This document shows positions 27,471-59,095 of a DNA stretch of 64,000 nucleotides, piece by piece (the first letter of the stretch is position 1; every line of letters starts with the position of its first letter). The stretch is from the NCBI GenBank assembly GCA_963753345.1, contig CAVWBU010000024.1, positions 96,001 to 160,000 of the forward strand, written 5' to 3'. Both the position numbers and the translations under genes were made by a program. The DNA comes from an uncultured Fibrobacterota bacterium. Its GTDB lineage: Bacteria; Fibrobacterota; Chitinivibrionia; Chitinivibrionales; FEN-1185. The notes beneath the pieces are model-generated. The model did not search any database. It saw nothing but the letters and a program-made list of their open reading frames with translations, and was not told the origin of the DNA.

Positions 27471-28712
27471 CTATTTCGACTTGGCAGGCGTGGTCTGGGC
27501 CGGAAGTTTCTTGGGCTCGGGTTTCACGGGCGCGGCAGGGGATTTCTGCGCAGGAGCCTTCCCGGGTCCGCCGCCGTCCGGACAACCGTCATCGTCCTGA
27601 TAGCCATCTATGTCCTCGGGCGTGTTCGGGCATTTGTCAAGTTTGTCCGGAATTCCGTCGCCATCGTTGTCGTTATCCGGGCAACCGTCCTCATCCTGGA
27701 ACCCGTCAAAATCCTCGGGCTCGTTCGGACACATGTCCTGCGCGTCGAAAATGCCGTCGTTGTCGTTGTCGAAATCAGGACAGCCGTCCTCGTCCTGAAA
27801 TCCATCCTTGTCTTCGGGAACATCGGGGCATTGATCCACGTCGTCGGGAATGCCGTCGCCGTCGGAATCGATGCGCACCTTGTTAAGCGCAACGTCACTC
27901 ATGGGCCCGATGTCCGAACCGCCCTTTCCCAGGCCCGCAAGCGGGAACCCTTTTCCCCCAAAACTTTCGAATGAAAATCCGACTATGCCTATGGAAGGAA
28001 GCCCGGGGTCCTTCGAGACGTTGGTCTCATTGATTACTGCGAACGGACTGCAAGCCAGCCTGTTTGCATAGAAATCGTTGTAGATGATGCGCGACCTTCT
28101 CGAATCTTCGTTGACGTAGATGCCGTATTGCTGATTGTGGAACAGAATGGTGTTCTCGACAAGCACTTCGCTCTTGTTGGCCAGCATGATGCCGCAGTAC
28201 CTGTTTTCACCGATAAAATTGTGGTCGATTGAGGTGCGTTGCCCATTGGTGATCAACTCGCAGAATATGCCCGTCCATTGGTTTGACTGGATGATGTTGT
28301 TCTTGATTTCAGGGAGCGACACAAGGCAGTGGACGCCGGTCCTGTTGTTGCGGATAATGTTGTGTTCGATGGTTGGATTCGTGTTTTTGCAGATAATGCC
28401 GGTGCTGCCGCGTTCGATGGTGAAGTTCCTGATAAGGGAGCGGTTTGCTCCTTCCACCACCGGCCTGCCGCCGCTTCCCTGCAGCACCGTCTTCTCGACG
28501 TCCTCACCCACCAGAGCCACGTTGTCTTTCATCACGATGTGCTCGCGGTAGGTGCCGTTCTGAACATACACCGTGTCGCCGTCTTCCGCTTCGTCAAGTG
28601 CCTTCTGGACCGACCGCGCGTCTCTCGGGACCACGATCTTCTTCGGGGCCGCCCACGAATTGACGGACACAACGACAAGCGCAAGCAGCGCGGCCATCAC
28701 AATCGCCTTCAT
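27471..28712 (-). CDS. Secreted right-handed beta-helix (NosD/pectin-lyase-like) protein with thrombospondin type-3-like Ca-binding repeats
   Basis: Signal peptide, SVQKALDEAEDGDTVYVQNGTYRE, and repeated I.NN.I..N..GI strands. C-terminal DxDGDGIPD..D.CP...ED.DGFQD.DGCPD repeats and a Pro/Lys tail. Confidence 0.8.
   Translation of the reverse strand: MKAIVMAALLALVVVSVNSWAAPKKIVVPRDARSVQKALDEAEDGDTVYVQNGTYREHIVMKDNVALVGEDVEKTVLQGSGGRPVVEGANRSLIRNFTIERGSTGIICKNTNPTIEHNIIRNNRTGVHCLVSLPEIKNNIIQSNQWTGIFCELITNGQRTSIDHNFIGENRYCGIMLANKSEVLVENTILFHNQQYGIYVNEDSRRSRIIYNDFYANRLACSPFAVINETNVSKDPGLPSIGIVGFSFESFGGKGFPLAGLGKGGSDIGPMSDVALNKVRIDSDGDGIPDDVDQCPDVPEDKDGFQDEDGCPDFDNDNDGIFDAQDMCPNEPEDFDGFQDEDGCPDNDNDGDGIPDKLDKCPNTPEDIDGYQDDDGCPDGGGPGKAPAQKSPAAPVKPEPKKLPAQTTPAKSK
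27576..27869 (-). repeat. Three tandem ~99-bp (33-aa) TSP3-like repeat units
   Basis: Units: DSDGDGIPDDVDQCPDVPEDKDGFQDEDGCPDF / DNDNDGIFDAQDMCPNEPEDFDGFQDEDGCPDN / DNDGDGIPDKLDKCPNTPEDIDGYQDDDGCPD. Confidence 0.9.
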
Positions 28713-28811
28713 AACACCCCCTGAACCTTTCTTTCGACACCGTTCTTGTGGTCTTGTATCATAAACTACGTCTTCTCTTGACCCACACACAAGGGCAAGC
28801 ATCTCGCTTCC

Positions 28812-31205
28812 CTACTTCTTGTCTATCTGCTGGAGTTCTTTTTTCTTCTTTTCGATTTCCTCGTTGATCTTATCCTCTTTCTTCTTCTGGTCCTCAATCT
28901 GCCGCACCTGACCGCCCGACTTCAGCAGGCTCGTCGCCTTCGCTATCGCATATTCCGCGTCCGATATCACCTGGTCCTTCCGCATGAAAAACTTCTTGTG
29001 CGACTGCGCCAGCAACGTATAGTTGAAAAAGTCCCGGTTCTCCTTTGCAAACTTGTCGTACTCCGACTTGAACGCTCCGCGCTCCTCGATCGACTTGTCC
29101 GTCGGCTTCCGCAGCGCGTTCTTCTTCACCTTCTCCGCCGTCGGCGCAAACTCGGAAGTCGTCTGACCAAACTTCTGCGTTCGTGCCTGAAGGTCCGCCT
29201 CCGTCACGTACTTCACCGTCTTCGTCATGTCCAGGCATTTCTCCAGCGCATCTATCGCATCCTGATACTTCTTCTGCAGCATCAGCCCGTACCCCTTCAG
29301 CAAATACGCCTCCGGCACCAGCGGCGATTCCGGGTGCGCCGCGATCAGCCGATCCACCGTCTGCAAACACACCGCAGGCTGGTTCACCTTGATCCACGAC
29401 CACGCCGTCCCCAACAGCGCCTCGTCCCCGTAGCTCGACCCCTCCGGCACCCGCTTGTACGCCTCCACCGCGTTCCGCAGCTCCACCTGCTCGTAATACG
29501 CATGTCCAAGCTTCACGTTCGCCGCGTCCTGCAACAGCTGCGTCGCAGGATCCTGCGTCGTGTCCGCTATGATGCTCTTCAGGTTCCCTACCGCCGCCTC
29601 CATCTTCTTGTTCTCGATGTTGATGATCGCCAGCGTGTACTGCCCGTACAAATACGACGGCGACCCCGCCTTGATCCGGCTCAACAGCTGCTCCGCAGCA
29701 TTGTAGTTCTTCCGCAAAAAGTGTATCTCACCAGCCACATAGTCCGCGTCGGGACGTATGTCGCTCTCCCCGTACAAATTCGTTATAAACGCGTGGTTCT
29801 TCAGTGCGTCCTCGTATTTCCCCTCACGGTAGTCGATCGTCTCAAGACCATACAGGTACTTCGACCGCATGTCCGACGTCGTGTATTCCTCCAGCGCGCT
29901 CTTGAACACCGCCCGCGCCGTCTCGTTCATGTACAATCGCTTGTAGCTGTCTCCCATGTAATACGCAGCCTTGTCGTTCAAATAAAAGTTCGGGTACAAC
30001 GACACCACCTTCCCGAACGCAAATGCCGCCTCCCAGTATTTCCCCGCCAGATACAGCCGCATCGCCTCGTTGTACGCGTCCATCGGCGCCAATATCAGCT
30101 GATCGTACAGCCGCTTCGACTCCCGCTGCTCACGCGTCGGACCAAAATCCGTCGACAACCGGTGCATCATCGTCAGCCCCCGCTCGTCCTCCTGGCCCGC
30201 TATCGGCAGCGCGTACCCTATGTGAACATCGTAGTTCAGGTAGTTGATCATCTCCGGCAACGGATATATAAAATTGAAATTGAACCCAACGTACGGTATG
30301 TTGTTGTTCGCCCAACCCGCCTTCAACCACACCTGCGGTATAAACTGCCACTTCACATGCGCGCTCAGCCGAAACGCCTTCTTCAACTCATACGCCTTCG
30401 TCACGTCCGGCGTCGCGTTCGTCCACACCGTGTCCGCCTTCAATATCCCCGCATACAAATCTGACAGCGCGTTGTCCACCACCCCCTCAAAATCAATCAC
30501 CAGCTTGTCGTTCAACCCCGAGTACCTCACCCCGGCGCGAACCCGCGTCACCCCCACCTGATCCAGCGTCGCTCCCGTGTCGTGCCATATCGGTATCGAT
30601 GGCACCACGTCCTGCAAGTTAAGGCTGAAACCAAGGTCCCCGTAACGAAAATGATCCATCGGATTGACGTACACCCCGAGGTCCAATCCCACCGCAAGCT
30701 GCTGGCTCATCCCAAACTTGCTCTCATAACGCAACTTCGCGTTCGCCCCAGCGATAAACCACGGCAATATCCGCCACGAATAATGCCCCACAAACCAGTT
30801 GTCCCCAAAATTCGCCTCGCCAAGGTCACGAATCGTGTTCGTCGCATCATTAAAGTCGATCGTCGTCCGGTCGATCGTCGATCCCGTACCTATCCACGAC
30901 AACCCGATCGTGTGATTCAACCGGATCGGCACCAAAAACGACATCTCCTGGTACCCCAGCGGCGTCGTCGATCCTGCCTCGTCCATCTCCCACCGGTAAA
31001 AACCACCCTCCAACCGATACTGGTTCACTCGGTACAACAACGCCGGGTTCACCAGACCCGACGAAAAATCGCTCAAATCCTCAATGAAATCCGCCTGGAA
31101 AAACGGCGCGTCGTAACCACCCGTCTGACCCTGCGCTCTCCCGCAGTATGTCAGCATCATCCCCACACACACCATCCACAGCATCCTCGTTATCTTCGTT
31201 TCCAC
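28812..31205 (-). CDS. Outer-membrane beta-barrel-like (PorV/UPF0164-like) domain fused to TPR repeats
   Basis: Signal peptide, NPALL, and aromatic amphipathic strands ending HRLSTDFG. Many TPRs follow (AAYYMGDSY, ADYVAGEIHF, ALLGTAWSW, AYLLKGYGL), then a coiled-coil end. Confidence 0.7.
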   Translation of the reverse strand: METKITRMLWMVCVGMMLTYCGRAQGQTGGYDAPFFQADFIEDLSDFSSGLVNPALLYRVNQYRLEGGFYRWEMDEAGSTTPLGYQEMSFLVPIRLNHTIGLSWIGTGSTIDRTTIDFNDATNTIRDLGEANFGDNWFVGHYSWRILPWFIAGANAKLRYESKFGMSQQLAVGLDLGVYVNPMDHFRYGDLGFSLNLQDVVPSIPIWHDTGATLDQVGVTRVRAGVRYSGLNDKLVIDFEGVVDNALSDLYAGILKADTVWTNATPDVTKAYELKKAFRLSAHVKWQFIPQVWLKAGWANNNIPYVGFNFNFIYPLPEMINYLNYDVHIGYALPIAGQEDERGLTMMHRLSTDFGPTREQRESKRLYDQLILAPMDAYNEAMRLYLAGKYWEAAFAFGKVVSLYPNFYLNDKAAYYMGDSYKRLYMNETARAVFKSALEEYTTSDMRSKYLYGLETIDYREGKYEDALKNHAFITNLYGESDIRPDADYVAGEIHFLRKNYNAAEQLLSRIKAGSPSYLYGQYTLAIINIENKKMEAAVGNLKSIIADTTQDPATQLLQDAANVKLGHAYYEQVELRNAVEAYKRVPEGSSYGDEALLGTAWSWIKVNQPAVCLQTVDRLIAAHPESPLVPEAYLLKGYGLMLQKKYQDAIDALEKCLDMTKTVKYVTEADLQARTQKFGQTTSEFAPTAEKVKKNALRKPTDKSIEERGAFKSEYDKFAKENRDFFNYTLLAQSHKKFFMRKDQVISDAEYAIAKATSLLKSGGQVRQIEDQKKKEDKINEEIEKKKKELQQIDKK

Positions 31206-31562
31206 AGCCTACCTCGCATGTCTTTGTTCGGTTGAAACCATGAAACCGGGCGCTTCCCGGCTGACCCGGTATGAATAGTCGTGTCTTGGTTGAAAAAGGT
31301 TCAATCAAACATCAATCCGGATTTCCTGACGCAGCGGAATCTCGTTCGCCGATACCGGCGCCAAGCCGTCATCGGTTCCGTATCGCGGTATCACATGGCG
31401 TCAGGGGGCTGTCGCCATATCAATGCCGACATCGGCAAAAAAGTTTGACGGGTTTTCAGTCGAATGTATATTATTATGCAAAGTCGGCTCCCACGAAAGG
31501 GCTGAACAAATACCACCAAACAAAAATGCGCGACCGCGCTGAAAAAGAAGAGAACCCTTCCT

Positions 31563-33914
31563 ATGGCAAAAAAAACCGCAAGAAAACCGCTCCCCGGCAG
31601 GAAAACGAAAGCATCCTCCTCGGTCGCTGCTGTTGCCCCGGAACAAAAAACAGCGGAAGATGCTCTGCATTTCAGGGTTGAATTTGAAAAACTCATCACC
31701 TCCATTTCCACCAATTTTATCAACCTTGCACCGGAGCAGATCGACAACGGCGTTACCGTGGCGCTCGGGCTGCTGGGAGAATTCACCAAAACCGACAGAA
31801 GTTATGTTCTCTTGTTTGACAAGAGCGGCGAGAACCTGGAGCGCACACATGAATGGTGCGCCATCGGCATTGAATCGCAGAGCGAGCAGTACCGCACCAT
31901 GAGCGCTTCGGCGCTTCCCTGGCTCGTAGGAAAACTCCGGATGCAGCAGACGGCCTACTTTACCGACGTTGACGATTTGCCTTCCGAAGCAAAGGCGGAA
32001 AAAAAGGCATTCAAGGAACAAAAGGTCCGTTCGCTTATCAATGTGCCGGTGGTATACGGAGGTTCGCTCCGTGGCGTCATCGGCCTTGAGTCGGTGCTTT
32101 CGAATAAATCCTGGTCCCGCGACACCGCAACCCTGTTAAAGATGGCGGGGGAAATATTCTCGAGCGCACTCGAACGCAAGCGGGTGGAAGAGGAGCTTGC
32201 CTACGAGCGCGACCTGCTCCACACCCTCATGGATAACCTTCCCGACACCATCTATTTCAAGGACACCGAGAGCCGCTTCACCCGCATCAACAAGGCGCAG
32301 GCAAAGACTCTGGGCATACAGAACCCCGTGGCTGCAATTGGAAAAACGGACTTCGACTTCTTCGTTCACGACCATGCGCGCATCGCCTTTGCCGAAGAGC
32401 AGGAAATCATGAAATCGGGAAAGTCGCTTATTAACAAAATAGAAAAAGTGAGCCGGCCCGACGGCAACTTCACGTGGTTCACCGCCACAAAGGTGCCCAT
32501 ATTCGACAAGAACAACAACATCGTCGGCACCGTGGGCGTCTCACGCGACATCACCACCATGAAGAATTTTGAAGACGAGTTGCAGAAAGCGAAAAACGAA
32601 CTTGAGATCCGCGTCGCGGAGCGCACCGCCGATCTCAAGAAGGCAAACGAACGGCTTGAGACGCGTATCGCGCAGCTTGACTTTCTCAATTCAACGTCGT
32701 TTGAACTTGCGCAGCTTATCCAGATCGACGAGCTTCTTCCGGCCATTCTCAGGACGTTTGCCGCAAGGTTTCCCCATTCGCAGGCCAGCATCTGCAAAGC
32801 GAAGAAAGGCTCGTTCAAGTGCACCCACGCTACGGGCGAGCTTAATACCGACCCCGGCCGTGAGGCCTCGGAGCAGGCGCTCTCCGTTTTCATGCGCACC
32901 GAGCTTCAGCGGACCATTGTCGTTGAAAACTGGATGCAGGACCCGCGCCTTTCGCAGTACAAATGGCCCGAGCTTTCGGAACTGCCCTGCTACACCGCGA
33001 TTCCGCTTCTTGCCGACAACAAATGCCTTGCCGTGGTGCAGATCTTCACCACCCCGGAATACGTGGACGTGTACGAACAGGAACAAACCCTGCTCACGAC
33101 GCTTGCGGCGCACGCTGCGTCCTGCCTGAGCAATGCCCTCCACTATCAGGATCTCGGCGAAAAGGCAAGACTCGACGGAGAGCTCGACGCCGCCAGGAGC
33201 ATCCAGCGCAGGTTCACACCCCAGTACAAGCCGCAGATCCCGCATGTCAATCTCAAGGGCGTCTACTATCCCGCGTACGAGGTGGGCGGCGATTACCTCG
33301 ACTACTTTAAAACAGAGGCGGGAGACTGGGTTGTGGTGATTTCCGACGTGTGCGGGAAAGGCATCCCCGCAGCGCTCCTGATGACCATGCTGCGCTCAAC
33401 CTTTAGAGTGGAGGGGCGCAATGAAACGTCGGCCAAGCGCCTCCTGTGCGCGGTCAACGACTTTATGACCCTCAACCTCGACGACCGCTCGTTCGTCACC
33501 GCGTTGTGCCTTATCATCAAGCATGACGGAACGTCCATGAGCTACGCGCGCGCAGGCCATCCCATGCTGCTCAAGTTGAGCCCGAACAACGAGCCGCCGC
33601 TGCCCATAACCAGCAACGGCCTTGCCCTCGGGCTTGTTTCCGACGGCGCAAAATTCACCGCGATGATGGACGAAGTGACGGTGGACCTCAAGAAGGGCGA
33701 CAGGTTCCTTATCTACACCGACGGCTTGATAGATGCGAACAATCCGGAGCGCAATTCGTACGGCGTCCAGCGCCTCAACGAGGTGCTCGCGCGAGACAAG
33801 GATTCGGATGCCGACTCCATGATCTCATTGCTCATGGACGACATTAAGAAGTTCACGCGCGGTGCGCCGTACCACGACGACCTCACCATTCTGGCGCTCC
33901 AGGTGACGGATTAA
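31563..33914 (+). CDS. SpoIIE/RsbU-type PP2C phosphatase with GAF-PAS-GAF input
   Basis: GAF (THEWCAIG), PAS (PDTIYFKD...VGTVGVSRDIT) and a second GAF. PP2C motifs EVGGDYLD, SDVCGKGIPAA, YTDGL and DDLT. Confidence 0.9.
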   Translation: MAKKTARKPLPGRKTKASSSVAAVAPEQKTAEDALHFRVEFEKLITSISTNFINLAPEQIDNGVTVALGLLGEFTKTDRSYVLLFDKSGENLERTHEWCAIGIESQSEQYRTMSASALPWLVGKLRMQQTAYFTDVDDLPSEAKAEKKAFKEQKVRSLINVPVVYGGSLRGVIGLESVLSNKSWSRDTATLLKMAGEIFSSALERKRVEEELAYERDLLHTLMDNLPDTIYFKDTESRFTRINKAQAKTLGIQNPVAAIGKTDFDFFVHDHARIAFAEEQEIMKSGKSLINKIEKVSRPDGNFTWFTATKVPIFDKNNNIVGTVGVSRDITTMKNFEDELQKAKNELEIRVAERTADLKKANERLETRIAQLDFLNSTSFELAQLIQIDELLPAILRTFAARFPHSQASICKAKKGSFKCTHATGELNTDPGREASEQALSVFMRTELQRTIVVENWMQDPRLSQYKWPELSELPCYTAIPLLADNKCLAVVQIFTTPEYVDVYEQEQTLLTTLAAHAASCLSNALHYQDLGEKARLDGELDAARSIQRRFTPQYKPQIPHVNLKGVYYPAYEVGGDYLDYFKTEAGDWVVVISDVCGKGIPAALLMTMLRSTFRVEGRNETSAKRLLCAVNDFMTLNLDDRSFVTALCLIIKHDGTSMSYARAGHPMLLKLSPNNEPPLPITSNGLALGLVSDGAKFTAMMDEVTVDLKKGDRFLIYTDGLIDANNPERNSYGVQRLNEVLARDKDSDADSMISLLMDDIKKFTRGAPYHDDLTILALQVTD

Positions 33915-43165: not shown

Positions 43166-43909
43166 TCAAATAAATTTTTCGCGCCGCTGCAAGTTTCTTA
43201 TGCCCCACAAAATCGCCAGCACGCCTGCCGCTGCAAGCACGACGCGGTTGGCCCGAACAATTGAATCCCACACCAGTTCCCTGGAACCCTGAGGAACCGC
43301 ATACGGGTTCAAAAAAATATTCCATTGACTTCCGGCCAGAGATCCGCTCAGCAGCCAGGAGCCAAGTCCCGCAAGCACAAGCAGGATTGCCGCGCCGTAG
43401 CCGTTCCGCATGAGCGTGGAAAACAGGAACGCGAGCGAACCCCAGAAGAACACCGGAAAGCACAGATGGAAAGCCATGCCAAGAACCGGCAGGTGCACAT
43501 GCAACACAACGCATGCCCCGCACAGGCACAGAAGCACCGCGGCCGTCACAGCGAAACAGAGCAGCAACCGGAAGAGCCAGACCTTGTAGCGGTAGTCGGG
43601 AATCCCGAAAATCAATTCGAGCATCTGCGCGTCCGCATCATTCTGAACGCCGAACACGGCCGGATAGAATACCAGCAGCAATCCCGGCACCAGCAGCAGA
43701 TTGTACAACATCTCGGGATTGAGCTCCCTTCCCGCCGACAGATTGATCCCGACGACAACAACAAAGAAACCGATTGCGGCAAGCAGAAAATAGAAGAACC
43801 GTTGCACAAAAATGATTTTGAGGTTGTAGCCGGCAAGCCTGCACATGAGCACCGCTCCGGGAAGCAGTCCCCTGCACAGGCGCAGGAACGACTCGGGCAG
43901 TCTAGCCAT
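43166..43909 (-). CDS. ABC-2-type permease-like membrane protein (about 6 TM)
   Basis: Six hydrophobic segments. The NDADAQMLELIFGIP coupling-helix region resembles ABC-2 permeases. Start overlaps the RND-ABC stop. RBS GAGGT. Confidence 0.65.
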   Translation of the reverse strand: MARLPESFLRLCRGLLPGAVLMCRLAGYNLKIIFVQRFFYFLLAAIGFFVVVVGINLSAGRELNPEMLYNLLLVPGLLLVFYPAVFGVQNDADAQMLELIFGIPDYRYKVWLFRLLLCFAVTAAVLLCLCGACVVLHVHLPVLGMAFHLCFPVFFWGSLAFLFSTLMRNGYGAAILLVLAGLGSWLLSGSLAGSQWNIFLNPYAVPQGSRELVWDSIVRANRVVLAAAGVLAILWGIRNLQRREKFI

Positions 43910-46900
43910 CGTCGCGACCTCTTTCATCTGCATTCTTCAGATCCCGCGTAAGGCACAAATACGAATCCTCCAGCGTCGGCTGCGCCGGCTGCGCCTCCGG
44001 ATGCGGCTTTTCGGACGCAATGCACCGCACATGAATCCGGTCGCCGTCGCTTATATGGCGCACCACCGAGGTCCGGCGGGCAAGCGCATCATATTCCTTG
44101 TTGTCAATAGTCGCCTGCCACACGCGTCCGGCCGCGTGCCTGAGCATGCCCGCCGGCTCGCCCGCATAGCGCAATTCCCCCGCAATCAGCACCGCCATGC
44201 GGTTGCACGACGACGAAATGTCCTCGATGATGTGCGTGGAAAAAATCACCACCCGCTGGCGGCTCAACTCCACCAGCAGGTTGCGGAAACGGATTCGCTC
44301 GCTCGGATCGAGTCCGGCCGTCGGCTCATCGACGACAAGGATGCGGGGCAGATGCAGCATGATCTGCGCGATGCCGATGCGCTGCTTCATCCCGCCCGAA
44401 AACGACCCGATCTTCTCGTCGGCATGATCTTCCATATGCACCGCGGTCAGCACCGAAAGGATCCGCTCCCGCCGCGCCGCCGGATCGCGCAGCCCCTTGA
44501 TGATCGCCTGGTAGTCCATGAATTCCCGCGCCGTGAGATTCGGATACGTGCCGAATTCCTGCGGCAGATACCCGATGAGCCCCTGCAGCTCCTCGCGGTG
44601 AAGCGCGGTGTCGAGTCCGTTGATGTACACTTTCCCGTAGGTCTGCTCATAGATTCCCGCCACGATCCGCATCAGGGTGCTCTTGCCCGCGCCGTTGGGG
44701 CCGAGGAGCCCGAACATGCCGTGCTCGATCTGAAGACTGACCCCCTTGAGCGCATGAAAGGTTGACCTGCGGGCGCCCAGAACGGGCACCAACTTCACCA
44801 ATGCGATGAAAACGGCGGCAGGTTTTGCCCACGGTGTTTTCCACGTCCGCGGGTCTGCTCCGGGATTGCTTTCGAGCCAGCGCGACGTGCGGAAAACGGC
44901 AAGTCCCAGATACCACACAATCCCGGTAAGCAGAACGACCGAAACTCGTTTCCACGCGTACTGGAAGAAAACCAAATTCGCAAGCGGCGCACCCCAGAAT
45001 AGAGCTTCGTACACTTTGTCGTGCAGCCCAAAGACTGCCTTGTTTCCCGGCCGCGCAATATTCACGAACAGGCCGTGCCGCTTGAAAAGGAAGAGCGCAT
45101 AGCAGTACGTGACAAGCGCGAACGCACATTGCCAGAATCCGTTGTCCGCATACCAATAGACAAAATAGAGCAAAAATCCCATAAGCGGGATCTGCCAGAA
45201 AAGCGCTCCCCAATCACCTTTCGCAGCACCGTGGGCGATGCCCTGCACGGCGGCGCCCCACTCCCGCGCAAACCGCCCCGGCATATTGTAGATCTTCTGC
45301 ACATTGCGGATTTGTATGGTGGCGGGCCGCTGTTCCTGGCCGGACATGCGGGCCCTGCGCAGGCTCGAAAGCAGAAACCAGGTGGCGGCCGGGACCGCGA
45401 CGGTGAAGATGATGACATCGGCCAGGCGCCAGAGCGGATCGTCAACATAGACAAATACGAGCCACACGCACATGGCAAGGGCGCCGAGCTGGACAATGCG
45501 GATTGTCCACGAAAGCGACCGCAGGTACCCGAGCGCCGACTCCAACCCGGAGTAACAGGTTGGAATAAAGACCAGCGTAAGCAGCGACGCGGAAATGATG
45601 CCGCCGATCACGGTGAGCGCAAAGGGAGCGCCGATGGCGCCGATCTCGCCGCCTTTACCCAATGCAAGCGGCAGCATGCCGACCGCCGTGGTGATCGCGG
45701 TTATGAAAATCGGCCTCATGCGGTCCTGACCTGCGGTCATGAGAGCGCGCGCCGTGGAAAACCCGCGCCGGCGCAGCACGCGCGTAAAATCGATGAGGAT
45801 AATCCCATTGCCCACCACGACGCCGAACAGGATCAGGAAACCCATGAGCGAGTTTGCATTCAGCAAGGAGTGCCCGGTGAGAATCTGAAGCCAGAATGCG
45901 CCGATGGCCGCAAGAGGTATCGAGAACATCATTACCAGCGGGGCCGTAAACGATTCAAAAACCGATGCAAGGATCATGTAAATGAGCAGAAACGCGGCGG
46001 CGATAAGATAGTAAAAGTCGTTGATTCCGCTTTGCCCGTGCACCGGTTCCACGGCGATACCTGCCGGGAACGTCATGGCATCGATGGTGTTGTCAACCTC
46101 CTCGCGGGCGGCCTTGAGCAGCGATTGTGATGACGTAATTTCATCGGCGAAATGATAGGTGATGACGATGCGGTGCTCCTGGTTCGCCCGGTTGATGCTT
46201 GCGGGACCGTTGGCGCGGATAATCTTGCTGATCTCCTGAAGCGGGTAATCGGTTCCATTGGAAGCCGAAACCGGAACGTTGTTCAGTTCATCAAAAGTCT
46301 TGGCGTTGTTCGCGGTGGCGCCGCGGCCCGAAGCATTCCGGTTCTGAACCGACGCACCCTTTGACGTCACCATAATATCGTATTGGTCGGCGCCCTGCTT
46401 GAATTGCAGGCCCGAGGTGAGTTCCTGGGTAAATCCGGACAGTTCCGAAGCAACCGATTGAAGGCCTATGCCGTACTGCCGCATGAGCTGCGTGTCGAAG
46501 AACAAATGGACCTCGCCTTGACGGCCGGGAATATCAAGCTGCACCGACTGGACCGTGGAAACATTGTTGAGCTCGAACCTGATTTCGTCGGCCACGGCTT
46601 CCATCCGGTCGAAGTCATCACCCCGTACCACGACCGTTTCGTCCTGGCTGCCCACGCCCAACACCTGCTGCAGCCGGGCGTTGGCGTTCACCCCGTTGTT
46701 TCCCCGGTAGCGGGAACTCGATGTCGGCTGGGTGAATCCGACGCTTCCCAGCGGAAAGTTATCGAGCCTCTTTTGAATATCGGCCTTGATCTGCGATAAG
46801 GTGCGATGCCCGATATCGGAATAGTTCTTCTTGAGCTTGACCGTAAGCACCGCCTCGTCCTCGTACACCATGCTGAGCAGATTGTCTGTTTCGTCAAGGC

Positions 46901-48653
46901 CCTGCAGGCGTTTCTCAAGTTCGCGCACGGCAAAATCAGTTTTGTCAAGTGTTGCGCCGGTGGGCATGGTGAGGTAGACGCTGAATTGTTCCGTTGCCGC
47001 CTGCTCGACCGAGGCGCTGCCCTGCGAAAGGCAGACGCCGAGAGAGATGAGAAAAACCGCAAGCGCCCCGCAGATCGTGATTCCGGGATGGCGCAAGGCT
47101 GTTTTGAGCAGCACGCGGTAGATGCGGATTGCGGGCGTGCGCGAATCGACCCTCCGGAACGAAAAGGTGCTTTGCGGGGCCTTGCGCAAACGAAGAAGTA
47201 TTGCCATGGGGACCAGGAGAAACGCCGTAATCAACGAAATGACAAGCGTCGCGATCACCGAAATGCCCATATGTTTTCCGATCAGCCTGATCGTAAAATC
47301 GGACGCGAACAGGAATGGAATAAAAATCACAACGGTAGTGAGGGTCGAGGCGAACACCGAGCGCCATACCTCGGTAGTTCCCCGGGTCACCGCCCGTTCG
47401 GGATCGTTTTTGCGCGAGGCCAGCCGATAAATGTTCTCCATCACCACGACGCTGTTATCAACGAGCATGCCCACGGCGAGAGCCATGCCGACCAGGGTGA
47501 GGCTGTTGAGCGTAATGCCGAACACGTAGAAAAGGTTGAAGGCGCCCAGCACCGAGATCGGGATCGCCGCAGCAACAATCAATACCAGCCGGAGATTGCG
47601 CAAAAAGATCCACAGCACACCGACCGCCAGAAGACCGCCGACCAGGACCAGCAATGCAATCTGACGAAGGCTTTCTTCTATGGAATCGGCGGCATTGGAT
47701 TGGATCACGATCTGCACATTCTGCGGCGCCAGAGTTTTGTTCAGTTTCTTGATGACGGCCTGCGTCTGGTGCGAAAGATCGATCTGGTTTACCTGCGCAT
47801 CGCGCACAAGCTGCACGCTCACCGCCTCCTTGCCGTTGACGCGGCTCAGACTCGTGGGCTCCTTGAAACCGTAGAAGACATCGGCGATGTCCTTAAGAAG
47901 AACCTTGCCGTTCTTGTTGCTTACGCTGATGTTCTTCAAATCGTCGATGGTCCGGAATTCGGCATCAACGTCCACAAAGAAACGCTTGCCGCCGTCGTGC
48001 AGCGCACCCACGTATTGACGGGCATTGTTGTTCTGCTTGAGCAGGTTCTGAACGCGGGTCGGCGTTATGTTGTAGGCGCGGCAGATGTCATCGTTCATGA
48101 CTATCTCGACGCTTTTCGAACGCCCGCCGAAAACCTGCGCGCTCGCGACGCCGTCTATGTCCTGGAGCGCGGGCGCTATCTTCTGATCCACGATGTTGCG
48201 AATGCGGTCGGCCCCGCCCTCGCCGAGCACCTGCAAGGTCATGAACTGGTTGGCGGCCTGTTCGGTGTTTACTTTGTCCACTTCCACCGTGAACTGGGTG
48301 GGAAGCTGGCTTACCAGCGCGGTGACCCGCTGCTGCAGTTTGAGAAATTCATACTTGACGTTCACGTCCTTGTCGAAATACACGTAAATGGTGCCCCTGC
48401 GGGGTTCCGAATAAGAAAGCAGATTATCCACGCCTTCCAGCATTGCGGCCGCGCCCTCGAGCGGCATCACGCCGTTGCTTTCCATATACGACGGGTCCAC
48501 ATCGATGCGGCTCGTGATACGGATCAGCAGCATGGGCAGTTCGGTGTTGGGATACAGTTCCAGCGGCAGGTAACGAAACGATACTACTCCAAGCAGGCAG
48601 ATGCCGACAAAAAGCACGCTGATGAGGATTTTACGATTGAGAAGTTGTAGCAT
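43902..48653 (-). CDS. RND permease (AcrB/AcrD/AcrF family) fused to extra TM helices and an ABC ATPase domain (1583 aa)
   Basis: RND: [101 protein letters not shown]. One uninterrupted ORF. Confidence 0.9.
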   Translation of the reverse strand: [1583 protein letters not shown]

Positions 48654-51755: not shown

Positions 51756-52817
51756 CTATTCAAGAATTTTTACGTGACTGCCGTCTTGAAGCGTCTCAAA
51801 TCCTTTTGTCACCAACCGTTCTCCAGCCTTGAGACCGCTTGTGACCTCGATTTCATTTTCGCTCTCGATGCCGGTTTTTATCGCGCGCAGTTGCGCGCGG
51901 CCGCGGTCGACGACAAAAACATTTTTGCCTTTTAAATCCGACAGGATGATCTCCTTGGGAACAACCACGGCGCTGTCTTTGCGCGCCACAACGACATCCG
52001 CCATGACAAACATGCCGGGACGGAATTTCTTGTCCGGGTTGTCGATGATAAACACGGCCTGAAAGGTGCGGGACGTCGGATCGACTGCGGGCGAGACTTG
52101 CGTAATGGTGCCGTGGGCAGTGTCGTTGGGTACCGTGTAATTCGTCATCAATATGGATTGCCCGACATGAACGCGGGCCATGTCGTTTGCCGGAAGCTTG
52201 GTCTGGAGACTCAGCCGGTCGTAGTTCATGACCTCCACCATAAGCTGGCCGGTGGCTGTTATGCGCGTGTTCTGCGTGTAATAGGGCAGATTGACGATCA
52301 CGCCCGCAAAAGGAGGTTTGATCCAGAGCTTGGAATCCTTTTCCACGGCGTCGTCGACGTTGAATTTGTCATTTGCAACAGCCAATTCGGCGTTCTGAAG
52401 GTCGGTGGTGGCCGCGCCGCCTTTCTCATACAGGGACCGTTCCTGATCCAGGCTCTGTTTTGCGATACCGAGGGTGAGTTTCTGGGATTCGACCCGGTTG
52501 GTGCTTTCGTAATCAACATCGTGCAGCTTGATGATTACCTCCCCTTCCTTCACCTGATCCCCGAGAGCAAACGGCTTGCGGGTACGGGGATTCACCTGGA
52601 GATTGTAATAGGCGACCATTTCGTTGATAATAGAGACGTCTTTTTCGGGGGTCACCGTGCCGGTTGTCTGCAGAAGTTCGGCGATGGGCCGCAGCTTTAT
52701 TTCCGCAACCGAGACCGGAATGGTAACGGTGTTCTGGTCCTGCGATTGCTGATTACCGCACGCAACCATCAATAACGCCGCGCCTACCGCGGCAACGGTG
52801 GAACGCACACAATGCAT
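51756..52817 (-). CDS. RND periplasmic adaptor (membrane fusion protein), lipoprotein
   Basis: Lipobox LMVAC. GDQVKEGEVI, IKPPFAGVI, ITQVSPAVDPTSRTF, FRPGMFV and EVTSGLKAGE. Confidence 0.92.
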   Translation of the reverse strand: MHCVRSTVAAVGAALLMVACGNQQSQDQNTVTIPVSVAEIKLRPIAELLQTTGTVTPEKDVSIINEMVAYYNLQVNPRTRKPFALGDQVKEGEVIIKLHDVDYESTNRVESQKLTLGIAKQSLDQERSLYEKGGAATTDLQNAELAVANDKFNVDDAVEKDSKLWIKPPFAGVIVNLPYYTQNTRITATGQLMVEVMNYDRLSLQTKLPANDMARVHVGQSILMTNYTVPNDTAHGTITQVSPAVDPTSRTFQAVFIIDNPDKKFRPGMFVMADVVVARKDSAVVVPKEIILSDLKGKNVFVVDRGRAQLRAIKTGIESENEIEVTSGLKAGERLVTKGFETLQDGSHVKILE

Positions 52818-52821
52818 AGGG

Positions 52822-54288
52822 TTATTCCTTTGGATGTAAATCCGGAATTACCGGTTGGTTTGTCCGGAAATCCCACAGGCTCTGGACTTTCATATTCAGA
52901 AGTTCGATCTGGTAATTGACAAGAGCGCTCACCAGGCCGCTTTTCGCCTGCGCAAGCTGGATCTGATACTGGTTCAGGTCCATCGCGCTCAATCCGCCGA
53001 GTTTGTATTTTTCGAGATTGATATCATAGGTGAGCGTGGCGGACGAAAGCGTCCGGCGCGCCAGTTCGATCTGCTCCTGCAGGTTCTGGATCGAACGGTA
53101 TTCCTTGCGGATCGCAAGGATTATCGTGGCTCTCTCATTGTCAAGCAACAGCTCGTCCTGCCGCAGGCCAATTGCCGACGCCTTGACACGCGCACGATTC
53201 GCCCCGAAATCCCATAGGGGAACCTGCAGCGTCAGCGCGGCGTTCATGTTTTTTGCCGGTTCCTTAAAAAGCGTGTTGATGGCCGGGCTGGCCCCCACCA
53301 GGCCGTAGGAAACATTGAGATTGCCGTTGAAAGCGCCGTTGCTGCGGGCCTGGGTAAGGGCGAAACGCGCATTCTCGATCGTGATGGCATCCTGACGCAG
53401 CTCCATACGCTGGCGCAGGCCGCTGGCCACCGCCTTTTGCAGGTCGATGGTCATCACCGAGGTGGTTGTGTCGATCATCAGGCTTATTGCGGTGTCAAGC
53501 GGAAGACCGAGCCGCTGTTTAAGCGCCTCGGCCGCGTTCTGCCAGGTGATCTCCTGGTTCTTCATGGTCGATTCATTTTGCGTCAGCGTGACCGATGCCT
53601 GGTAGAGATCGGATTTGGCCTGTTTCCCGGACGCCACGCCAACCTCGGTAATGTCATAGCCCTGCTGCGCGCTTCGGACAGATTCCTGGGCGATTTGAAA
53701 GTTCATTTGATCCTGGTACAAACCGTAGTAATCGCTCGCGATGCTCGCCTCAATGGCCAGCGCCTGTATCGCGTAGGTGAACTGGTTGGTTTCAAGCGTG
53801 AGCTCCTGCTGGCGCAAATTCATCTTCAACTGGTTGTAAATGAGAAGCGGCTGCGAATAACTGATTGCCGTATGATAATCAAACGAACGGCTCTCGCCGG
53901 CCCTCGAATAACTGGTGTACAGGTCGTTCCAGCCCATGTCGCCCTCCAGCGCCACGGTGCCGCCGGTGAGAAGCACGGGCTGCGAAAGCTGGAGCTGACC
54001 GCTCGACTTGATGTTCCTGGTCGTGTCCCAGGAATTATTGGGACCCAATTGCAAATCGTTGGTATAACTGATGGGAGAAAGGGAAAGGTTAACCGAGAGT
54101 TTCTGCGCCGCAACAGCCGCATCGTATACGGCCTGACTTTGCGCCAGGGTCATGCGCGCCTGCACCATTTCCGGGCTCTGGCGCGTCACCAGCCACACGG
54201 CCTTGTCAAAAGACAACGTGTCGATCACCTGACCGCTGCAAGCGCAGGTGATGAGGAGAATTGCAAAAACCCGGAGGCACGTCTTCAT
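52822..54288 (-). CDS. TolC-family outer membrane factor
   Basis: Signal peptide. LQLSQPVL, YSQPLL, LTLQVPLWDFG and YKLGGLSAMDL. TAATG coupling to the upstream gene. Confidence 0.9.
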   Translation of the reverse strand: MKTCLRVFAILLITCACSGQVIDTLSFDKAVWLVTRQSPEMVQARMTLAQSQAVYDAAVAAQKLSVNLSLSPISYTNDLQLGPNNSWDTTRNIKSSGQLQLSQPVLLTGGTVALEGDMGWNDLYTSYSRAGESRSFDYHTAISYSQPLLIYNQLKMNLRQQELTLETNQFTYAIQALAIEASIASDYYGLYQDQMNFQIAQESVRSAQQGYDITEVGVASGKQAKSDLYQASVTLTQNESTMKNQEITWQNAAEALKQRLGLPLDTAISLMIDTTTSVMTIDLQKAVASGLRQRMELRQDAITIENARFALTQARSNGAFNGNLNVSYGLVGASPAINTLFKEPAKNMNAALTLQVPLWDFGANRARVKASAIGLRQDELLLDNERATIILAIRKEYRSIQNLQEQIELARRTLSSATLTYDINLEKYKLGGLSAMDLNQYQIQLAQAKSGLVSALVNYQIELLNMKVQSLWDFRTNQPVIPDLHPKE

Positions 54289-57200
54289 TATTGTTTCACC
54301 CACTTGATTGCATCCCCTGCAACGATCCCCGCGCTTGCCTGGTTTGTAAGCTCGACCAGTGCCGATCCCGGGGAAAGATGATAGCGGCCGAGGGAATTCC
54401 AGCCGTTCTGGATATCTTTCAAGTCAAGCGCCACGTTCTCCGTGCCGTCATCGTGATGCACGATGTAATGATAGGCCCCTTGCAACGGTTCCCGGTTCTG
54501 ACGCCTGCCGTTTCCCCGCTGAAAACCCATGGTTCCGTAGTAGGCATAAATTTCGTACGTGCCGCTTTCCTTGATCGACGCCCGCCAGGCAATGCGTTTG
54601 TCGCCGCTGCCCGCTTTTATATAATGGATGGAATGCACGTACTTCCCGTAGAATTGAGGACCCGCGGCTTCAGTCCATTCGGCAGGCGGGTCAAAGAAAC
54701 GCACACCGGCGAACCGGTCCTGAGCCTGGCCCGGGGAATTCTTGAACCAGTTGAACAGCCCCCCCGAAGGTTTATTCTCAATGGCAAAGCCGCTGTCCTC
54801 ATCGTCGACAATGGCAACGCCGGATTCCGGCGCAGTGATCCCGGTGATGACCTTTTCACCGTCGAACGCCGCCCGGGTCGCGTCGAATTCCACCTTGTCA
54901 AACGGATGCACCATGGTCGCGGGAATATTTTTTGATATGAGGGTGTTGACGGCGAGCATGCGCGGCGGCTGATCCATCATCATGTCGATTTCCTTGCACT
55001 GGCGCGGCTCAAGCGAAACGATCCGGTCGACGGTCGCATTCCCGCCCCGGAACCCGCCGGAAAACGCGCCCGCGCCTCCCCCGCCGAATCTTCCGCCGCC
55101 GAACGACCCGGTCCGGACGCTCACCTTCACGAATCCCTGCGCGGATTCGGGATTCGCGATCTCAAAACGGACCAGAAACCGGTTGGCCGTCTTGTCGCGC
55201 ACCTCGCTGGCCTGTATGTTGTCAAGCACATAGCCGGGCAACGGATGTTTCTGGTAACATGATTGCAAGGCGGGATGAAAATCGAAATTGAACCGTTGTT
55301 TGATTTCGGCGCAGAATTCTTCAAGGTCAAGAGTTTTGAACCTGTTCTCCCGGACGATCCCCAGCACAAAATCGTCGAAAGCCTGATCACCGATGTTTTT
55401 TTGCAGGACCGTGAAAAGGTAATCCCCCAGCGCCTGGGCGACATCGGGAACGAGCGCACGGTTTTGCGGATCCCTGCGGATCTGATCGAAGCCGCTGTTT
55501 TCCAGGGCGCCGTTCACCCTCTCGTCGGTAGCTGCCCCGCCCGAGAACATGCGCATCATCCCGGCCGCTTCTCCGCTCGCCCGTTTCTTGAAGTACGATT
55601 CAAGCGCCAGCGAAAAGACCGGACATGAGGGTGCACGCACGTTCACCACATAGGAAAAATACTCCGGAAAGACAAACAGGTTGGCATTGGCGGCGCTCAC
55701 CGGCGGCAGCCACTGCAGCAGCTGGGCCGTCGAGGCAGTGCGATCGACGGGCCGGAGCATCAGCCGGCGGCCGGCATTGTCGCGCTGGAACGTGGAGGTG
55801 ACAAAACGCACAGAACATCATGCTCTGCTGTTCCTGCGGGGTCATTACCTCCTGATCGCGTCCGCGGGAGAAGTTGAGATTGCCCAAACGAATCGCCCGA
55901 AAATCCGCATCGCTCAGCGAGAATCCGTTTTCCGGAAGCAGCGCGATTTCCGGTTGCATTGCCTCATGCCCGCTGGTCCAGACACGGGAGAAGTCCGTGA
56001 ATTGCAGGGGAACTTCGGCCATGGTGAACCGGGAATAGGGATAATTGCATTTGAGACGGTTTTCGAAATCCGCCTTGACGCCCCGGACAAGCGACGCAAC
56101 CGTGTCGGTCCGAAGATCCCTGAAATACGGCTTGAAATAGCCGTGATGCGCAAGCGTCAAGAGGCTGTATTCCACGGAATCAACAGCGACCGACTGTTTC
56201 GCATATGCCCCTATGATTACCGAAACGCCGGGCAGGGGCATCGACGGATTGAAAACCCATGCGCCGCCCGCCGCGTGCACGGGTTCCCCCGGACTGATGA
56301 CCGTGAGGGCCGGATCGGCGCTCACCGTGACGCTGAAGTGCGCCAGCGCCGTACCATTCACTTCGGGATGGTCGGAGCAGTATCCCGCGCCGGCCTGAGG
56401 GTAGAACTGCGATTCCGGCGTGAGCAAAACGAAACGTTTGTTGATAAAAGCATATCTCGTCTGTTTTCGGAAGAAGAACACGGCGCCGGCGCTGGCTTTT
56501 TCCTCGGGCGGGACGTCGAGATAGCAAACCGATTCATCAATCGTCCCGGCGTAATCGAAAGCAATCGTGTCAAGCGACCCGGCCGGAAGCGGATTGGCAG
56601 GATTCACCAACACATAGTCGAGCGAACGCCGGAACCGCAGCGGATGACTTCCGCGTATTTCCCGGATCGCAAGTCCCGGATTAAGGCGGAACTGGTATTC
56701 CTCGACCGGCCGGCCGGTCTCATTTTCTACCGCAACACGGGCCGTTGCCCGAATCGTGTTGCCGGCATGCGCAATGCTGAGGGAATCGCGAACCACCGAA
56801 ATGCAGGGAACGCCGAACCGGCGGTTATGCTGCTCGACCATCCGGCCGCGCAGTTCCTGATCGCGCAGGTTCCCCTGCACGTACCATGTGCCGGCGACTG
56901 CGGCAGAGCCGCCGAAAAGAATTACTGCGGCAAGCGTTGCTCCCGAAACGAACGTCGATTGCGGAAGGCGTTTCAGACGCAGCGCCGAAACCAGCACCAA
57001 TGCAATGCCAAGCAGCAGATACACGGCGCGAAGGGCCGCGATCCCGCCTGTCGACCCAAATCCGGTGATGTCGGAAAACATGAGCGGCGTGCGCAACGCG
57101 GCAACATCAAAGAGCGAATAGAGCCGGTCGGGCAAAAAGAAGAAAACCAGCCCGAGGATGCCGAATAGTGCGACCAGCGACAAGGGCTGGCTTCGTATGA

Positions 57201-57711
57201 TTGACATAAGGCAGAATGTGAGCCCGATGCAGAAAACGAGCGTGGGCAGACTGATGAGAAGCCCGTAATAACAATAGGCACTCAAACGCACGGGCACGTC
57301 ACCCGAGAAGAAATTGAAGAGCGCGGCGCACACAAGCGCCACGACGTCAAGGCAGACGAAAACCAGGAGATTGCCGCACGCTTTCCCCAGAACATAGGAC
57401 GTGTTGGTCATCGACCGGATGTACACCACGTCGGTCGTATCCATCGAGCGGTCGCGTTTCATGAAATCGGTTGCCAGAATGATCGCCACCACCGACTGAA
57501 TCAAATTGAGAAGCAGCATGGTTGCATAGGGGATGTTTGCAGGGATCGCGCGAAAGACCCAGGTGGAAAACTGACCGACGCTCAGGATCATCGCGTTCAG
57601 GCCTACCAGGAGCACCACCATTGCACCCGCGAAAATCCGAAAGAACCAGCTCCGCCACAGGGTAAGCGCTTCGTACAGCGCGACGGCCGTCATTTTCCGC
57701 AGAGAATCCAT
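54288..57711 (-). CDS. ABC-2 permease fused to M1-aminopeptidase-like ectodomain and C-terminal golvesin/xanthan-lyase-CBD-like domain; apparent +1 frameshift near 55812
   Basis: N-part (ORF 55600-57711): YEALTLWRS, about 7 TM, DRSMDTTDVVYIRSMTN, then FRLNPGL, FDYAGTIDE, YPYSRFTMAEVP. C-part (ORF 54288-55811) ends YHYIVHHDDG...GWNSLGRY...AGDAIKWVKQ. Removing one T from ATGTTCTGTGCGT joins the frames (about 1140 aa). Confidence 0.7.
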
Positions 57712-57713
57712 GT

Positions 57714-58604
<891 letters not shown>

Positions 58605-58739
58605 GCTTTCCCTTTTGGCAAGCGTTTTGAACGCATCCACCCCACGACGCCTCGTTCTTCGCGCGGCCTTTTTTGCTGCCCAATACCATATATTCGTTAT
58701 GTTGGACTTTGCCAACATGTCGAACGTGACAACTACTCT

Positions 58740-58967
58740 TTGTCCACAATTAGTAACATAGTATTTGCCGTTTGCGGCATCGGAAGACGGCCGCCGGCCG
58801 GAGGGGGAATGCATGGAGGAGGCATGGGCGGCGGCAGAGGGATGCACGGGGGAGGAGGAGGTGGGATGCACGGAGGCGGCGGGCATGAAGCCGCATCCGC
58901 GGGCGATTCCGAAGGGCCGTTCACGGCGTCGTTTTCCATCCTGCTGGCCCGAAACCCTGCTCGCTGA
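58740..58967 (+). pseudogene. Orphan 3' fragment (or small ORF) encoding a Gly/Met/His-rich tract
   Basis: GGGMHGGGMGGGRGMHGGGGGGMHGGGGHE...PFTASFSILLARNPAR*, with no convincing start or RBS. Confidence 0.35.
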
Positions 58968-59011
58968 TTTTCGGGCACTGCAAGACGAGCGCGGGCCCAA
59001 CGATCCGCTGT

Positions 59012-59095
59012 TCACCGCTCAATACGTTTGCTTGACAGAATGTTCATAAATGGAGGATCGAGTTTCATGACGGTGTTGAGCGGATGTTCCGACAT
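59012..59095 (-). pseudogene. 27-codon ORF with strong RBS; possibly the truncated 5' end of a carboxymuconolactone-decarboxylase-like gene
   Basis: AAAGGAG-N8-ATG, then MSEHPLNTVMKLDPPFMNILSSKRIER*. The family resemblance is from memory only. Confidence 0.3.

Follow-up and report, generated by a model that had tools for sequence, protein, structure and literature searches.

Here we describe, in a window of 64,000 nucleotides (nt) from an uncultured Fibrobacterota bacterium (contig CAVWBU010000024.1, positions 96,001 to 160,000; coordinates below are those of the window), a gene that joins a resistance-nodulation-division (RND) efflux permease to an ATP-binding cassette (ABC) ATPase domain in one open reading frame (ORF; 43902-48653, minus strand; 1583-aa product). 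The ATPase domain, or nucleotide-binding domain (NBD), appears to be non-contiguous: residues 1113-1122, IQIRNVQKIY, have the characteristics of its first strand (beta-1) and A-loop aromatic residue, and 177 residues, predicted to include four membrane-spanning helices, separate Y1122 from H1300 (window about 44756), with strand 2 at 1299. Taken as a whole, the system is best explained, with a probability that we put at roughly 0.6, as a tripartite RND pump to which an ABC exporter of type V is hard-wired, with a membrane protein encoded directly downstream (P0002) that would serve as the exporter's permease.

The identification of IQIRNVQKIY as a displaced beta-1 and A-loop is supported by conservation, structure prediction, superposition, profile coverage and a profile scan, all of which agree. 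In a family alignment of the C-terminal part of the fusion with that of 115 full-length relatives, every one of the 116 rows has I1113 and K1120, the A-loop tyrosine Y1122 is present in 115 of 116 rows, and the RFxREW motif that follows it is nearly invariant. Comparison with beta-1 of paralogous ATPases further shows that K-I-Y, with its aromatic residue, resembles their A-loop. When the C-terminal part was modelled with AlphaFold2 on the family alignment (mean predicted local distance difference test score, pLDDT, 87.7; predicted TM-score, pTM, 0.70), residues 1113-1122 (model positions 74-83) came out as a strand, with a pLDDT of 94 for the ten-residue block around it. All other predicted strands are confined to the ATPase and its C-terminal domain, and none lies just before beta-2.

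Superposition of this model on solved structures (VIA-align) returned ABC ATPase chains in 50 of the 50 rows listed, with alignments that start at model positions 67-73 and at chain residues numbered -3 to 36, or 72. Because solved ABC domains superpose from model 67-73 onward, the strand would stand in the canonical beta-1 position. For example, model 72-531 superposes on residues 2-239 of 1vpl with Z 28.4 and a root-mean-square deviation (rmsd) of 1.6 Å over 235 of 238 residues, and the match to 4yer_B reaches Z 30.2 (rmsd 3.3 Å, 264 of 277 residues aligned). Profile coverage points the same way: NCBIfam profiles that include the first strand (GldA, PQQ-linked and lantibiotic-protection) begin to match at profile position 14-15 in the fusion, versus 1-3 in a free ABC ATPase paralog encoded in the same cluster. 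Finally, a 13-column beta-1 profile built from six free paralogs and slid across the 1571 windows of the fusion scored best at 1112-1124 (score 20.3, z 4.6), a score reached by 61 of 2000 shuffles.

It could be argued that IQIRNVQKIY lies outside the ATPase fold, that the hydrophobic stretch is a long membrane linker, and that the NBD lacks a canonical first strand; sequence searches do align the NBD only from about residues 1293-1302, the strand being too short to be detected alone. We regard this as very improbable given the invariant I1113 and K1120 and nearly universal Y1122, the agreement of the predicted strand with beta-1 in every solved NBD listed, its rank at the top of all windows scored against the paralog profile, and a model that offers no alternative strand ahead of beta-2. 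An earlier sequence-only reading of this DNA had proposed that IQIRNVQKIY is the first NBD strand and that only a few residues occupy the corresponding point of the free paralog. Its coordinates and quoted sequences proved correct when the ORF was re-read, the AlphaFold modelling that it advised places the strand at the beta-1 position of solved NBDs, and we count five residues at the insertion point of the paralog (about 58502, minus strand).

The segments on either side of the displaced strand are helical and hydrophobic. Beyond the last RND transmembrane (TM) helix, TM12 (1002-1037), a Kyte-Doolittle scan finds segments at 1047-1072 and 1076-1099, the two extra helices that had been noticed after the RND end, and further segments at 1172-1190, 1235-1257 and 1274-1294. 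AlphaFold2 models linker helices at model 10-30 and 34-66 (block pLDDT 83-96 across model 11-60), followed in the insert by four long helices at 1148-1168, 1172-1200, 1205-1234 and 1237-1262 (model 109-129, 133-161, 166-195 and 198-223) and two short amphipathic ones at 1127-1141 and 1276-1288 (model 88-102 and 237-249). Averaged over the family, hydrophobicity shows six peaks, in 19-residue windows that begin at 1056, 1077, 1151, 1172, 1214 and 1237, with values of 1.5-2.1. The four long insert helices, 21-30 residues in length and hydrophobic, are thus predicted to span the membrane. The C-terminus of an RND permease is cytoplasmic, as established for AcrB; with two predicted spans before the strand and four after it, an even number on each side, both the strand and the ATPase core would lie on the same side as the RND C-terminus.

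The insert, too, is conserved in the family. Measured from the tyrosine to the strand-2 alanine it is 171-185 residues long (median 185, n=116), and W1220 and P1223 within it are invariant in the 116 sequences. A search with the insert alone against 1.84 billion representatives gave 42 matches, of which 14 are full-length proteins (1550-1577 aa) that carry it at about 1092-1297 and the remaining 28 are shorter proteins; none of the 42 places it in another architecture. An ESM Atlas search with the insert returned only scores of 0.79-0.80 to tiny hypothetical clusters, and provided no lead. We also considered whether the six extra helices might be a second P0002-like permease; this idea has no support from sequence, a profile-profile comparison of the fusion and P0002 families (probability 0.15%) having found no relation. 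The sequence-only reading had described an insert of about 180 residues with four hydrophobic helices, had called for its conservation to be checked in homologs, and had concluded that a membrane bundle splits the NBD and anchors it to the bilayer or links it mechanically to the RND trimer. The displaced strand and the insert of that description stand; membrane spanning stays a prediction, drawn from hydrophobicity and helix length. If the insert does span the membrane, anchoring to the bilayer would follow almost by construction.

The fusion itself is, by sequence, real and conserved. Pfam assigns ACR_tran (PF00873) to residues 5-1035 (E 6.9e-167; 557.5 bits against a gathering cut-off of 28, covering profile positions 6-1018 of 1021) and ABC_tran (PF00005) to 1302-1446 (E 1.9e-28; 100.2 bits against a cut-off of 25). 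A database search with residues 1040-1583 reported thousands of matches, and all of the 120 best that were listed carry both Pfam domains, at 97-100% query coverage; 115 of these 120 are 1538-1640 aa long and 46-86% identical. Furthermore, when a family member was used to retrieve 80 metagenome loci, 56 of them have a full RND part in frame with the ATPase part, 22 have a frame that stays open as far as the contig end, and two have a stop within the RND part. Because of these 56 complete and 22 contig-cut loci, together with the database relatives, an assembly or frameshift artefact does not account for the architecture. Two observations on shorter forms may be added here. At one locus in a genome of the same genus (L103, G004:C37, 4138-7379) two separate matches make up the RND part of the fusion and the open frame spans just 1233 aa, which may reflect a frameshift or an assembly break. 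Separately, three clusters of 483-aa proteins (P0225, P0231 and P0233) have no RND part and begin 12-13 residues ahead of the displaced strand, a hint of a natural gene split at this very point. The nearest loci fetched (L105 and L106, 87% identical) are, however, fused in frame, and we do not count the putative split as evidence.

The ATPase core appears catalytically complete, as the sequence-only reading had noted. Walker A (1318-1326), the Q-loop (Q1365), the signature FSGGM (1418-1422), Walker B with D1442/E1443, the D-loop (1446-1449) and the H-loop (H1474) are all present, and the key catalytic residues are invariant in the 116 sequences; ATP hydrolysis would be expected on this basis. 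In fold, the domain most resembles TM_1403, ABCA-family proteins and NosF (Foldseek and VIA-align), that is, the ABC-2 or type V class, with Z values of 26-30 for the core against solved NBDs. The best structural match, 4yer_B (TM_1403), spans model 70-532 and thereby includes the C-terminal domain. The fusion scores 158.3 bits against the GldA equivalog TIGR03522, below its cut-off of 402.6, and a MacB/FtsX-type membrane and periplasmic domain is absent from the eight Pfam families found on it.

A candidate for the membrane partner of this ATPase is encoded immediately downstream. The P0002 gene overlaps the end of the fusion gene, an arrangement that suggests translational coupling; for its 255-aa product, neither Pfam nor NCBIfam gave a match with E up to 0.01. 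The family of P0002 is large (1612 database matches), and those of the 120 listed that carry a source name are called 'hypothetical protein'. The AlphaFold2 model of P0002 (pLDDT 87.0, pTM 0.83) superposes on type V ABC membrane domains in 50 of the 50 VIA-align rows listed (Z 13.6-15.7), best on NosY (Z 15.7, rmsd 3.6 Å, 213 of 250 residues aligned). The top Foldseek rows are PmtD, ABCG2, CcmB, NosY and KpsM, with E-values of 0.02-0.3; TM-scores to type V chains are mostly about 0.46-0.58, and those of ABCH rows lower (0.24-0.39). A P0002 homolog lies just downstream of the fusion at 75 of the 80 metagenome loci; four of the others have no room for one, and one has room but no match. P0002 is therefore predicted to be a type V (ABC-2) permease and is probably the membrane partner of the fused ATPase, neither of which the sequence-only reading had proposed. 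A complex prediction of P0002 with the membrane part of the fusion (alignment A1 residues 1-258) gave a score of 0.00; controls were not run, and the result weighs neither way.

A second, unfused RND permease, likewise absent from the sequence-only reading, is encoded directly upstream of the fusion gene, and its conservation may bear on how the complex is assembled. It has a counterpart at 50 of the 56 metagenome loci with a full-length fusion and at 5 of 5 genome loci; of the six metagenome loci without one, room is lacking at four, and the 777 and 1589 nt available at the other two hold no match. Scores against subfamily models lie below the cut-offs: the fusion scores 470 bits against the NCBIfam multidrug subfamily RND_permease_2 (cut-off 1250), 289.8 against MdtC (cut-off 1774) and 272.7 against MdtB (cut-off 1584), and the unfused protein scores 357.4 and 317.2 against the MdtC and MdtB equivalogs. 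When the fused RND is aligned to solved pumps, the full set of TM4 Asp-Asp, TM10 Lys and TM11 Arg, which we take to form the proton relay of AcrB-type pumps, is not found. Specifically, the TM4 pair reads Asp-Asn (Asn in 111 of 115 relatives) and the lysine position holds Gly (Asn in 109 of 115 relatives, Gly in four). Nevertheless, Asp in TM4, an Asp in TM10 (114 of 115) and Arg in TM11 (115 of 115) are retained by the family, and protons might take a path like that of another RND type; the unfused RND keeps Asp-Asp and has Ser in place of the TM10 Lys. That the fused RND is simply without proton coupling was considered and rejected, as the unfused partner also lacks the lysine and the TM10 Asp and TM11 Arg are conserved.

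Putting these elements together, we propose that two extra helices follow the cytoplasmic C-terminus of the RND permease and lead into an ABC-2-class ATPase domain, and that in the folded protein the strand at 1113-1122 would be back at its usual place in the ATPase sheet. Six helices, four from the insert and two from the linker, would thereby make up a membrane anchor and hold the ATPase at the inner membrane face beside the RND permease. There the ATPase, together with P0002, would most likely constitute an ABC exporter tethered to an RND-adaptor-outer-membrane pump. The ABC part would take its substrate out of the cytoplasm or the inner leaflet and the RND part relay it across the outer membrane, with the exporter either feeding the RND pump or operating beside it. 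Because ABC ATPases need a dimer, RND pumps are trimeric and the second RND gene is conserved, we infer a heterotrimer of two fused and one unfused RND subunits, which would supply two ATPase domains per pump.

The same anatomy could also be read as an RND pump that is driven or gated by ATP, in which the ATPase pushes or gates the RND cycle through its covalent links, beta-1 being joined on either side to membrane helices that abut RND TM12, and P0002 is an accessory only. This would be the first RND pump powered or gated in such a way: nucleotide binding at the A-loop tyrosine would be relayed through the six-helix bundle, bypassing the coupling helix, and the AcrB-type relay would have decayed in the fused subunit. 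A covalent and strictly conserved fusion is what one would expect of such a machine, as are the membrane helices that directly flank beta-1 and its adenine-contacting A-loop, and the departure of the fused RND from the AcrB-type relay (Asn in TM4; Asn or Gly for the TM10 Lys) fits as well. We nonetheless find it doubtful. What an ordinary ABC exporter requires, a full permease partner of type V, is conserved next to the NBD, and the prediction that P0002 is such a permease makes an ordinary NBD-permease pair more likely as the core of the machine; the fused RND retains its TM4 Asp, TM10 Asp and TM11 Arg; the unfused partner likewise lacks the TM10 Lys; and we know of no RND that uses ATP. A new coupling mechanism has a real but minority chance.

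Alternatively, the fused NBD might pair with the free ATPase paralog, uniting both ABC modules of the cluster with the RND pump. The free paralog is the closest to the fused NBD in the genome (46% identity across model 261-532) and lies at a distance of 13-14 kb, with an unchanged gene order in all 5 genomes examined. Each ATPase, however, adjoins its own membrane protein, and both have complete catalytic motifs, so that neither resembles a degenerate half; we consider this heterodimer improbable.

Several points also weigh against the preferred reading, an exporter hard-wired to the RND pump, and against the displaced strand on which its anatomy depends. The trimeric RND is mismatched to an NBD dimer, the 2:1 solution is pure conjecture, and the free paralog could instead supply the second NBD. 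P0002 matches no Pfam or NCBIfam ABC-2 model, and its Foldseek E-values are weak. The structural evidence is wholly predicted, by one method; the pairing of the strand was deduced from its DSSP assignment and from the first-aligned residues, not from contacts; and the beta-1 profile test is modest, given how many shuffles reached the observed score. With respect to topology, the membrane spans were taken from hydrophobicity and AlphaFold2 helices, family-mean hydrophobicity peaks at only about 1.5 in two of the four insert helices, and a fairly basic loop of two residues joins insert helices 3 and 4.

Table 1. Features of the fusion gene and its cluster, in window coordinates.
Feature	Position	Strand	Basis
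RND permease part of the fusion, residues 1-1037	45543..48653	-	Pfam ACR_tran; hydrophobic segments to TM12
Two extra predicted TM helices, RND-ATPase linker, residues 1047-1099	45357..45515	-	Hydrophobicity, AlphaFold2
Putative displaced NBD strand beta-1 and A-loop Tyr, IQIRNVQKIY, residues 1113-1122	45288..45317	-	Conservation, AlphaFold2, superposition, profile
Insert between beta-1 and beta-2, residues 1123-1298	44760..45287	-	AlphaFold2 helices, conserved length
ABC ATPase core with all catalytic motifs, residues 1299-1500	44154..44759	-	Pfam ABC_tran, motifs, VIA-align
C-terminal beta-rich domain after the NBD, residues 1501-1583	43905..44153	-	AlphaFold2 strands at model 472-506; 4yer_B match
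Relay-aligned sites in the fused RND, residues ~399-400 and ~948	47450-47480 and 45800-45830	-	Alignment to solved pumps
P0002, 255-aa membrane protein, predicted type V (ABC-2) permease	43166..43933	-	AlphaFold2 fold, VIA-align
Second, unfused RND permease, 1036 aa	48631..51741	-	Pfam ACR_tran, E 1.1e-202
Membrane fusion (periplasmic adaptor) protein	51756..52817	-	Pfam HlyD_D23, HlyD_3; syntenic at 5/5 loci
Outer membrane efflux protein	52822..54303	-	Pfam OEP, E 3.9e-39; syntenic at 5/5 loci
Upstream half of the cluster: free ABC ATPase, 703-aa ABC-2-like membrane protein, Golvesin_C-domain protein	54288..59015	-	Pfam
Free ABC ATPase paralog	likely 57714-58619 (likely start MHISIE, about 58619)	-	Pfam

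The fusion is the seventh of eight genes whose order (free ABC ATPase, 703-aa ABC-2-like protein, Golvesin_C protein, outer-membrane protein, adaptor, RND permease, RND-ABC fusion, P0002) is identical in 5 of the 5 genomes examined, which belong to two phyla: three are of the window's genus and two are Bacteroidota. The upstream half forms a second ABC module, in which the 703-aa protein has a weak ABC2_membrane_2 match and the 507-aa protein a Golvesin_C domain; the Bacteroidales counterpart of the latter has an additional weak Peptidase_M1 match, and the literature that we found on golvesin consists of Dictyostelium papers only. As listed, the 703-aa and 507-aa ORFs overlap by about 210 nt (55600-55811, minus strand). 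The 507-aa gene probably has its true start downstream of the GTG that is listed; at another locus (L104) the two homologs are about 50 nt apart. On the other side of the cluster, the gene after P0002 (42065-42988, minus strand) encodes a 307-aa protein that has, judged by its translation, about four hydrophobic helices at the N-terminus and a region with an HD-type motif. This gene is not a constant neighbour: in the Bacteroidales locus its place is taken by a U32 peptidase. Elsewhere in the window, positions 28001-32000 have a strong negative GC skew (-0.18, -0.21) against values of about 0 in the remainder, and cover the long ORFs 28812-31205 (minus strand) and 28998-30464 (plus strand).

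The spread of the fusion is patchy. It occurs in 4 of 5 other genomes of the genus and in 0 of 35 others in the order, and in an even sample of 300 further genomes, all Bacteroidota, it was found in one when only four candidates were scored in each. A scan of genome contigs with alignment A1 caught generic ABC motifs, and only one of its 80 loci (L017) is a true member of the fusion family, also with the cluster context. Source names of relatives include Chitinivibrionales, Prolixibacteraceae, Bacteroidales, KSB1, Melioribacteraceae, Krumholzibacteria and Ignavibacteria-like organisms. Three family members (L173, L175 and L182) are on contigs labelled human gut metagenome, and the architecture is thus not confined to sediment or environmental samples. 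In databases the fusion proteins go only by 'efflux RND transporter permease subunit' or by the names of the two domains.

Proton-driven RND pumps and ATP-driven ABC transporters count as distinct energy classes of efflux machinery. In this family a single polypeptide combines both, with an ATPase that is predicted to be threaded through the membrane, and the family is common, with more than 100 full-length relatives listed. It may serve as a test case for how far an ABC domain tolerates topological interruption, for the possible hard-wiring of two-step efflux across the inner and then the outer membrane, and for whether an RND cycle can couple to ATP. Full-text literature searches found no relevant paper on an RND-ABC fusion architecture; the component parts are all of known kinds, and it is their fusion and the membrane-split ATPase domain that appear undescribed.

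The closest relatives of the ABC part are type V exporters of the NosFY and TM_1403 kind, with which it shares the NBD fold and C-terminal domain (4yer_B is the best match and NosF is among the top Foldseek rows), the predicted fold of P0002 (NosY being its best match) and the adjacency of NBD and permease genes. In contrast to those systems, an RND permease and the NBD here form one chain, a predicted four-helix membrane insert splits off the first NBD strand, and P0002 has no ABC-2 sequence match. The joint encoding of an ABC ATPase with a periplasmic adaptor and an outer-membrane channel is shared with MacAB-TolC, but the MacB-type membrane and periplasmic domain is missing here and the adaptor-facing component would be the RND permease. 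Two paralogous RND genes side by side behind an adaptor gene recall MdtABC and MuxABC, and the 2:1 heterotrimer MdtB2C1, as described in PMC7015380, offers a precedent for two copies of one RND subunit in a trimer. The equivalog scores given above, in contrast, are far below their cut-offs, and no MdtBC-type pump is known to carry an ATPase.

Precedents for an interrupted ATPase head are more distant. In SMC/Rad50-type ABC ATPases the head is built from two segments around a long insert, a soluble coiled coil that splits the domain between Walker A and the signature. The two-segment head is alike, but here a predicted membrane bundle separates the first strand only. An insertion between beta-1 and beta-2 is, to our knowledge, otherwise known in ABC ATPases only from CFTR. 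According to PMC2217481, the regulatory insertion of CFTR NBD1, ~30 residues long, lies between strands 1 and 2, and the channel remains functional when its chain is severed at this point, which indicates that the same site tolerates an insertion and even a chain break. That element of CFTR, as described there, is about 30 residues long, soluble, mobile and phosphorylated; the insert of the fusion is about 177 residues long, hydrophobic, helical and conserved in length.

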